Assembly: GCA_944350225.1 (NCBI GenBank)
Contig: CALVOH010000001.1
Location: 1-42,576, forward strand
Direction: 5' to 3'
DNA length: 42,576 nucleotides
Origin: an uncultured Clostridia bacterium
GTDB taxonomy: Bacteria; Bacillota; Clostridia; Christensenellales; UBA1242
Each line of letters opens with the position of its first letter. The first letter of the stretch is position 1. The notes below the pieces were generated by a model that did no database searches, had not been told where the DNA came from, and was given only the letters and a program-made list of their open reading frames with translations. Below, in pieces: positions 12,423 through 15,400 of the stretch. The position numbers and the translations under genes are program-made.

Positions 12423-15400
12423 TTAAATAACGCCATCCTCTTTTACAATCACAGGCATAACTTCGCGGTATTTTTTAAGACCTGTCCCTGCTGGAATAAG
12501 TTTTCCTATAATAACATTTTCTTTAATACCCATCAAGTTGTCAACTTTTCCTTTTAACGCTGCATCTGTAAGTACACGAGATGTTTCTTGGAAGGAGGCA
12601 GCTGACAAGAATGATTCTGTAGATAAAGCGGCTTTTGTTATGCCAAGCAATATTCTCTTCGCCGTAGCAGGAACACCACCTTCAGAAAGCACACGGTTGT
12701 TTTCCTCTTCACATTTGTAAAGGTCAACTATGTCGCCTGGCAACAAGTTTGTGTCACCAGAAGACTCAATTTTTACTTTTTTAAGCATTTGACGAACTAT
12801 TATTTCAACGTGTTTGTCATTAACTCCAACGCCTTGGCTTCTGTAAGCGCCAATAACTTCTGAAAGAAGGTAATCTTGCAAGCCTTTAACACCTCTCAAT
12901 CTTAACAATTCGCTAGGATTGATTGGCCCTTGAGAAAGCTGACTTCCTGGCTCAACATTATCACCATTTTTTACTGTCAATATTGCAGGTTTTTTAATCT
13001 CATATTCTGTGTCGCCATCTTTCGATTGAACAGTGATGATATAATATTTTGCATCTTGTTTTATGCTAACTTTTCCTGCGACTTCACTTAACACACATTC
13101 ACCTTTTGGCCTACGAGCTTCAAAAATTTCTTCAACTCTTGGAAGACCTTGTGTGATGTCGGCCGCTGATGCAGAACCACCAGAGTGGAAAGTTCTCATC
13201 GTAAGCTGTGTTCCTGGTTCACCAATGGATTGAGCAGCAATGATACCAACAGCTTCGCCGATAGTAACTTGTGCCTTCCCAGAAAGATCTCTACCATAGC
13301 ATTTTGCGCACACACCATGTTTGCATTTACATGTAAGTAGTGTCCTAATTTGAACACGTTTTATACCTGCTTTTTCTATTTCACTTGCTTGCTCTTTGCT
13401 AATCATTTCATTTGATTTTACAATAATCTCGCCTGTTTTTGGGTTGACTACATCATCAACTGCAACACGACCATAGATTCGTTCAGCAAGCGTTTCTTGA
13501 ATGTTTCCGCCTTGGTACAAATCGCTCACCCACATACCTTTGATCGCTTCGCCATTGTCAGCAAAGCAGTCTTCGGTTGTTACAACAACATCTTGTGAAA
13601 TATCAACTAGTCTTCTTGTCAAATAACCAGAATCGGCTGTTTTAAGAGCCGTATCCATAAGACCTTTTCTGGCACCACGTGCTGACAAGAAATGTTCTAC
13701 CGGTTGCAACCCTTGAATAAAGTTTGATTTTACTGGAATGTCAATTTTTTGACCAGAAGCAGCAGTTTTCAACCCTACCATACCACATAATGTTGCAAGG
13801 TGGTGGGCGTTACCACGAGCTCCTGAAATGATAATAGTTTTAAGTGGATTGCCATCTTCAAGTAAATTTAATGTGTCCTTATCAATCTTACCTTGAACGT
13901 CATTCCAAATGTCAACGTTAGAGTCAATTCTTTCATCATTTGTAATCAATCCACGTTTAAACAATTTTTCATTTTCCATCACTTTTGCTTCAGCTTCAGC
14001 AACATATGCTTTTTTAGTTTCTGGCTCATTCCCGTCAAAAGCATTTATTGTGTTTGCCACCAAAGTCGAATATTTATATCCAAGGTCTTTAATTTTATCA
14101 ATCAAAATCGAGCACTCGGTTGTGCCAAGCTTGTTGTAGGCTTGAGCAATGATGTTTTTTAAATCGTTCTTCGTTACAATCTTATTGCATTCAAGTTCAC
14201 AATAATTTTCTTCTTTAGTTCTATCAATTAATAGACCTTGTGGCATGTTTTGAGAGAAAATAATTCTACCAACAGAGGTCGTTATACGTTTAGAATAAAT
14301 TTTCCCATCAACTTCTTTCGTGAAACGAACTTGTATTTCTGCTTGAATGTCTAATTCACCTGTTTGATAAGCTATGATTGCCTCTTCAGGAGATGCAAAA
14401 ACACTTTTTTCTCCTTTTTTGCCAGGCAATATCTGTGTCATCGAATAGCAACCCAAAATTACGTCCTGAGTTGGAGTAACAATTGGTTCACCGTCTGCAA
14501 GCTATAAAATGTTTTTTGAAGCTAGCATTAACACCCTCGCTTCCGTTCGCGCATCGATTGAAAGAGGAACGTGAACAGGCATTTGGTCACCGTCGAAGTC
14601 AGCATTGAAAGCCGTGCAGACTGATGGGTGAAGTTTGATAGCTCTACCTTCAACAAGCACAGGTTCAAAAGCTTGAACTGAAAGTCTGTGCAAGGTAGGA
14701 GCGCGGTTCAACAAAACAGGGTGCTCTTTGATAACATCGGCGAGAATGTCCCAAACGATAGGTTTTTCGCGTTCGATCATGCGTTTAGCACTTTTTATAT
14801 TGTTAGACTTGTTTAGTTCTATCAGCTTATTAATAATAAATGGCTTAAATAATTCGAGTGCCATTTCTTTTGGCAAACCGCATTGATACATTTTAAGTTC
14901 TGGCCCAACGACGATAACTGAACGGCCAGAATAATCGACACGCTTACCAAGTAAATTTTGCCTAAATCTGCCCTGTTTACCACTCAACATTGCAGTCAAA
15001 GATTTTAAATCCCTTTGTTTTGAGCCTTGAACAGCCCTACCACGTTTACCGTTGTCAATCAAATTGTCAACAGCTTCTTGCAACATACGTTTTTCGTTTC
15101 TTATAATGACTTCTGGCGCTCCAAGCTCCATAAGTTTTTTAAGACGATTATTTCTGTTGATTACGCGTCTATACAAATCATTAAGATCTGACGAAGCATA
15201 TCTTCCACCATCAAGTGGAACCATTGGTCTTAAATCTGGTGGAAGAACAGGAAGAACATCAAGAACCATCCATGTTGGATTATTTCCACTCTTTAAGAAT
15301 GATTCAACAACTTCTAGCTTTTTAATTGCCTTTATGCGTCTTTGTCCCTTCATGGTAGGCAAGGATTTTTTAAGCTCTTTACTCTCCTTTTCAAGATCGA

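Follow-up and report, generated by a model that had tools for sequence, protein, structure and literature searches.

Sporadic stop codons that result from errors are known from low-coverage metagenomic contigs and MAGs. A stop codon within a reading frame can also be decoded, as in pyrrolysine decoding, which is associated with a pylTSBCD cluster, typically involves TAG codons in genes for methylamine methyltransferases, and inserts pyrrolysine, a derivative of lysine. In addition, two adjacent genes can jointly encode the beta' subunit of RNA polymerase, as with rpoC1 and rpoC2 in cyanobacteria and plastids or the A' and A'' genes in archaea, and such natural splits feature poorly conserved linkers, proper start signals, and conservation throughout a clade. 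In bacteria, rpoC is otherwise an essential, single-copy gene. A Codetta screen reported UGA as the codon concerned in every stop-codon reassignment known from bacteria (PMC8629427). Here, we compare these systems with an in-frame TAG codon located in rpoC of an uncultured bacterium, which very likely reflects a local error in base calling, consensus, or assembly where a junction is poorly supported, in a gene that is otherwise normal.

The DNA analysed, which we refer to in its entirety as the window, is a 42.6-kb stretch of low-GC chromosomal DNA (25-39% GC) that contains uvrA, htrA, a class II aldolase gene, hflX, a gene for a VirB4-like ATPase, a 3539-aa ORF, rpoB, and rpoC, with small accessory genes after rpoC. 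The rpoC gene occupies positions 12423-15947 of the minus strand and comprises 1174 codons and a TAA stop, based on its translation, the NCBIfam profile TIGR02386, and its relatives. Translation of this interval showed that the gene is interrupted once, by a TAG at codon 482 (14502-14504, minus strand; CTA on the plus strand), which lies approximately 20 residues past the catalytic NADFDGDQM motif. The halves on either side of the TAG match TIGR02386 at profile positions 1-473 (E = 2e-260) and 490-1147 (E = 5e-223), and their contiguity on the profile indicates that they represent one gene in one frame. The gene product corresponds to bacterial beta' in its match to the full profile, in the presence of NADFDGDQM within its translation, and in the position of its gene directly downstream of rpoB. 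A sequence-only reading of this DNA had described the amber codon as in frame, the residues past it as continuing the upstream frame, and the TTG at 14456 as having no start codon before it, and each statement holds: the ORF list gives this TTG as the first in-frame start codon past the TAG. Among pairs of in-frame ORFs of at least 100 aa each in the window, only the pair that comprises rpoC is separated by TAG, and the three further pairs are separated by TAA and consist of different genes. Every other long ORF in the window is intact, with none interrupted by TAG, and the approximately 12,700 ORF codons that we checked contain no second in-frame TAG, as the sequence-only reading had also reported. 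Its remaining factual statements regarding the TAG in rpoC, which are taken up below, were upheld as well.

We examined codon 482 in ten related contigs that cross the TAG site (L081, L082, L083, L084, L085, L086, L087, L093, L094, and L096). L081 and L082 come from sibling samples of the apparent source of the window, L085 is a 162-kb contig of the NCBI MAG GCA_949289435.1 that is syntenic with the window, and L096 represents the nearest independent strain, which comes from an independent sample (BRZ_DM) and aligns collinearly with 6574 bases of the window. Nine of these contigs, which share 95-99.9% nucleotide identity with the window in rpoC, have AAG (Lys) at codon 482, and the tenth, the more divergent and GC-richer L084, has AAA, which also encodes lysine. 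One substitution at base 14504, A to T on the mRNA strand, separates the TAG from AAG. When the C-terminal half of beta' was used as a protein query, uninterrupted 1174-aa proteins were recovered at 99% identity, as well as many more proteins at 66-93%. Among the closest database homologues, all 116 matches that contain the motif have lysine at the position of the TAG, and they read LMLASNN(I/L)L-K-(L/P), with asparagine at position 478 and lysine at position 482. Beta' of the relatives is one uninterrupted protein of 1174-1175 aa. The 481-aa N-terminal product had an exact match in no contig of the collection. A scan of genome contigs yielded only relatives of at most 74% identity, which are too distant to inform on codon 482, and a scan of metagenome contigs for the TAG site, with N at the two variable bases, yielded no match. 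Taken together, these results demonstrate that the TAG is private to this strain's assembly. The sequence-only reading had named a sense codon such as AAG in relatives as the result that would speak against readthrough, and this result was obtained for 10 of 10 contigs and 116 of 116 homologues. Because the relatives carry a lysine codon, its view that beta' depends on decoding or readthrough of the TAG is unsupported; the explanation that it listed first, a sequencing or assembly error, is favoured by the relatives and by two local patches of substitutions.

These patches were apparent from the comparison with L096, whose rpoC is 99.74% identical to that of the window. Across the 6574 collinear bases, the window differs from L096 at 11 positions, four of which are scattered (9397, 11466, 12975, and 13032). 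The other seven fall within two tiny patches of rpoC, one around the TAG (14504, 14514, and 14538) and the other at codons 48-50 (15799, 15801, 15803, and 15805). In the first patch, codon 478 (14514-14516, minus strand) is AAA (Lys) in the window and AAC (Asn) in every relative, and the resulting N478K change, found in the window alone at a distance of 10 bases from the TAG change, affects an asparagine that is invariant among homologues. In the second patch, codons 48-50 (15798-15806, minus strand) are TTC TAT ATG (FYM) in the window and either TGC GAA AAG or TGT GAG AAA (CEK) in relatives, and the invariant DGLF-CEK-IFGP motif accordingly reads FYM at these codons. Every second base from 15799 to 15805 has become T on the mRNA strand, between a run of six T and a run of five T. 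These three codons encode CEK, CER, or CEV in 241 of 241 homologues and FYM in none, and a second protein search, which used the N-terminal half, returned mostly partial and more distant proteins, again with FYM in none. Six of the seven patch changes alter residues that are invariant across more than 100 homologues (C48F, E49Y, K50M, N478K, and K482*), and the change at 14538 is synonymous.

The two patches have a substitution spectrum unlike that of natural variation. All seven patch changes are transversions, in comparison with 28% of changes elsewhere, and rpoB and rpoC outside the patches differ from L085 by 122 transitions and 48 transversions. Outside the patches, rpoC has 59 synonymous and 3 conservative differences relative to L085, and rpoB (15968-19675, minus strand), which served as an internal control, is intact and has 93 synonymous and 7 conservative changes. 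In contrast, comparison of rpoC with that of the nearest strain gives 3 changes that are synonymous and 5 codons that are radically changed, the stop among them, and this pattern is unlike the natural evolution of an essential gene. Furthermore, each of the seven patch changes turns a base into that of an adjacent run on the mRNA strand, as seen in the contexts TTTTTT[G>T]C[G>T]A[A>T]A[A>T]GATTTTT, AAA[C>A]AA, TTTTA[A>T]AG, and GC[T>G]AGGG. We also considered templated conversion from a donor within the window, which was rejected because neither patch has a second copy there beyond chance.

The region around the TAG is also where two assemblies diverge. Contig L088 (ENA ERZ28614604, sample SAMEA6814579, scaffold_1312, 35.4 kb), which was found through an exact match to the rpoB protein of the window, is a second assembly of the same strain, with 15,140 of 15,141 bases identical. 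The sole difference is at 14538, where the mRNA strand has G in the window and T in L088 and all relatives, and L088 ends at window position 14535, which is 31 bases short of the TAG; the private substitutions at 14538, 14514, and 14504 fall within the next 35 bases from this end. That L088 both ends and disagrees with the window here (14535-14538) indicates that the spot is unstable between assemblies, and the break and the private changes behave like a poorly supported junction. Look-ups with the 625-, 179-, and 176-aa neighbours for a contig of ERZ28614604 that continues past the break gave other samples only, and a literature search on the sample and assembly accessions found nothing. The FYM patch is absent from all other relatives but is shared by L088 and the window. 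It did not, therefore, arise in a single run of an assembler, although both assemblies may derive from the same reads. Three strain-specific synonymous changes at 14549-14559, just upstream of the TAG, are likewise common to the window and L088, and to this extent the local divergence reflects genuine variation of the strain.

In several respects, the rpoC TAG resembles the sporadic stops that errors introduce into metagenomic contigs: it is private to one assembly, it adjoins a contig end at which two assemblies of one strain differ, it belongs to a cluster of radical substitutions that have homopolymer runs beside them, and sister contigs carry unrelated stops of their own. One of these sisters, L083 (ENA ERZ16268231 scaffold_7530, 3120-6644), is 98.6% identical to the window and has a private TAA at rpoC codon 651, together with two substitutions, A654E at a distance of three codons and L245R within the conserved PLDGGR motif. 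The other, L084, has a private rpoC TGA only a few bases from the contig edge (1-30) at 2.2x coverage. The stops in L083 and L084 indicate that such errors occur in these data, and three stop codons at three positions, each private to one contig, suggest noise rather than a recoding rule. Unlike contigs with typical error stops, the window is a long (>42 kb), clean contig in which the errors are unusually local, and the every-second-base pattern at 15799-15805 is odd. The presence of FYM in both assemblies also counts against an error, as do the synonymous changes shared with L088, which are real variation, and the clean remainder of the window, in which genes are intact and differences mostly synonymous, such that errors would have to be very local. 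On balance, we infer from these comparisons, rather than from observation in reads, that an error almost certainly caused the TAG, and the FYM patch is probably a second such error.

If the TAG is an error at a poorly supported junction, then the true codon 482 would be AAG (Lys), and the organism, an uncultured low-GC bacterium of the Clostridia type, would use the standard code with TAG as a stop. Beta' would be made as one 1174-aa polypeptide, with no decoding, suppression, or split involved. The errors could have arisen by homopolymer-associated miscalls, which the conversion of all seven substituted bases to those of adjacent runs suggests, or by low coverage. On this evidence, the rpoC TAG is an ordinary artefact, and its value is practical: when a MAG contig shows a lone in-frame stop, the first step should be a comparison with sister strains and with further assemblies from the sample. 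Likewise, use of this beta' in phylogeny or annotation calls for prior correction or flagging of the patches at 14504-14538 and 15799-15805.

Alternatively, the TAG could be a real and very recent nonsense mutation in the strain or in a sub-population, in which case the rpoC allele would be non-functional. It could then belong to a dead-end variant, stem from the DNA of non-viable cells, or be complemented by another copy elsewhere. A real allele would account for the T in the assembled sequence of codon 482 and for the recurrence of FYM in a second assembly, and the changes at 14549-14559 in both assemblies suggest that the strain has a distinct local haplotype. However, we consider such an allele unlikely for a gene that is generally essential and single-copy and that is under strong purifying selection outside the patches, as the ratio of 59 synonymous to 3 conservative differences illustrates. 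Five radical codon changes alongside 3 synonymous differences would be an unnatural pattern for this gene, and the assemblies disagree at 14538, where L088 ends. Moreover, transversions at every second base, as at codons 48-50, are not a known mutational signature.

We regard it as very improbable that full-length beta' is obtained by decoding of the TAG, whether through a tRNA(CUA) of the suppressor or pyrrolysine type or through programmed readthrough specific to this site. As in UAG reassignment and pyrrolysine decoding, the in-frame TAG is located in a conserved gene and aligns with an amino acid, and the replaced residue is lysine, although the connection to pyrrolysine is one of resemblance only. 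The base that follows the TAG is C, and a C after the stop codon is a weak termination context in E. coli. TAG is also a rare terminator in the window, where it ends 1 of 25 genes (with the interrupted rpoC excluded) and is backed by TAA. That gene encodes the 3539-aa ORF, and the sequence-only reading had correctly singled it out as the sole TAG-ending gene, with TAA as its next codon (TAG at 19953). Yet the ends of orthologous genes indicate that TAG terminates translation in this species. In the window (19950-19955) and in L088, the last codon of the 3539-aa ORF is TAG, with TAA directly behind it, and at the identical position L085, L086, and L087 have TAA. Conversely, a TspO/MBR gene ends in TAG in L085 (5993-5995) and in TAA in the window. 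The interchange of TAG and TAA between strains at such gene ends shows that TAG is an ordinary terminator in the species, unlike in systems that reassign UAG.

The features by which recoding is recognised were also examined. An alternative code would feature recurrent TAG at conserved columns of many genes and TAG unused as a terminator, and the window has a single instance of TAG within a gene, one found in no relative, among approximately 12,700 ORF codons, as well as TAG in use as a terminator. Pyrrolysine decoding would feature a TAG conserved among orthologues, and programmed readthrough a conserved stop and context, in contrast to the lysine codon found in all relatives and to the absence of the stop from 10 of 10 contigs, including the 99.7%-identical L096. 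No pyl genes or tRNA(CUA) were seen in the 42.6-kb window, nor were any tRNA or any match to an Rfam family. The window likewise does not contain prfA, the gene for release factor 1, whose loss or alteration would accompany a code with TAG as a sense codon. A downstream recoding structure was rejected because the 120 nt from the TAG fold at -24.9 kcal/mol, which is no better than shuffled sequence (mean of -24.5 kcal/mol, z = -0.11). Decoding would also leave the N478K and CEK-to-FYM changes unexplained. There is little probability that this strain has no rpoC other than the TAG-bearing one and makes beta' from it by readthrough or by suppression, with, for example, a tRNA(CUA) gene in another part of the genome. 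If true, such a case would mean that, in a free-living Clostridia bacterium of the gut type, an essential gene has very recently come to depend on UAG suppression, and it would be the first bacterial essential gene known to do so. It would, moreover, be a hint of UAG reassignment among bacteria; their known stop-codon reassignments, which all involve UGA (PMC8629427), argue against decoding here.

Least credible is a natural split of beta' into two polypeptides (N-terminal, 481 aa; C-terminal, 677 aa) with restart at TTG 14456, for although two adjacent ORFs jointly cover beta', the second ORF begins at this TTG with a Shine-Dalgarno-like AGGA 6 bases upstream (within CAGGACGTAATTTTG), and split genes have precedents in cyanobacteria and archaea whose NCBIfam families are among the profile matches, the break lies just past NADFDGDQM rather than at a linker and would delete 16 conserved residues (482-497, or TIGR02386 positions 474-489), a loss that the sequence-only reading had anticipated, no relative is split at codon 482, and the cyanobacterial split maps elsewhere, with rpoC1 profiles running to approximately position 560-570 within the C-terminal half.

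The remainder of the window yielded several additional observations. At the window end, we considered whether uvrA is truncated by a stop, which was rejected because the gene runs off the window. The 3539-aa ORF (19953-30572, minus strand) lies directly upstream of rpoB and is without a Pfam domain, and in sister strains it is conserved at 3476-3484 aa, with indels. Immediately before it is the gene for the VirB4-like ATPase (30582-33308, minus strand), whose best match is the mycoplasma ICE family Mbov_0397 (NF045975, E = 3e-169, just under the cut-off). The TspO/MBR gene (6347-6817) differs from that of L085 at 37 synonymous and 28 non-synonymous codons, with flanks that are approximately 99% identical, and the stretch around it (about 5400-7200) contains many indels relative to L085, which suggests a recombined or replaced segment. 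A 625-aa ORF with weak matches to ankyrin repeats (9229-11106, minus strand) has more non-synonymous (18) than synonymous (8) differences relative to L085, unlike its neighbours, which points to relaxed or diversifying selection on the predicted protein. Finally, the 179-aa ORF downstream of rpoC corresponds to a 211-aa ORF in a contig from a sibling sample (L097:2477-3112; ENA ERZ28614196, SAMEA6814578), where it runs into the end of rpoC and its TGA stop appears to have changed.
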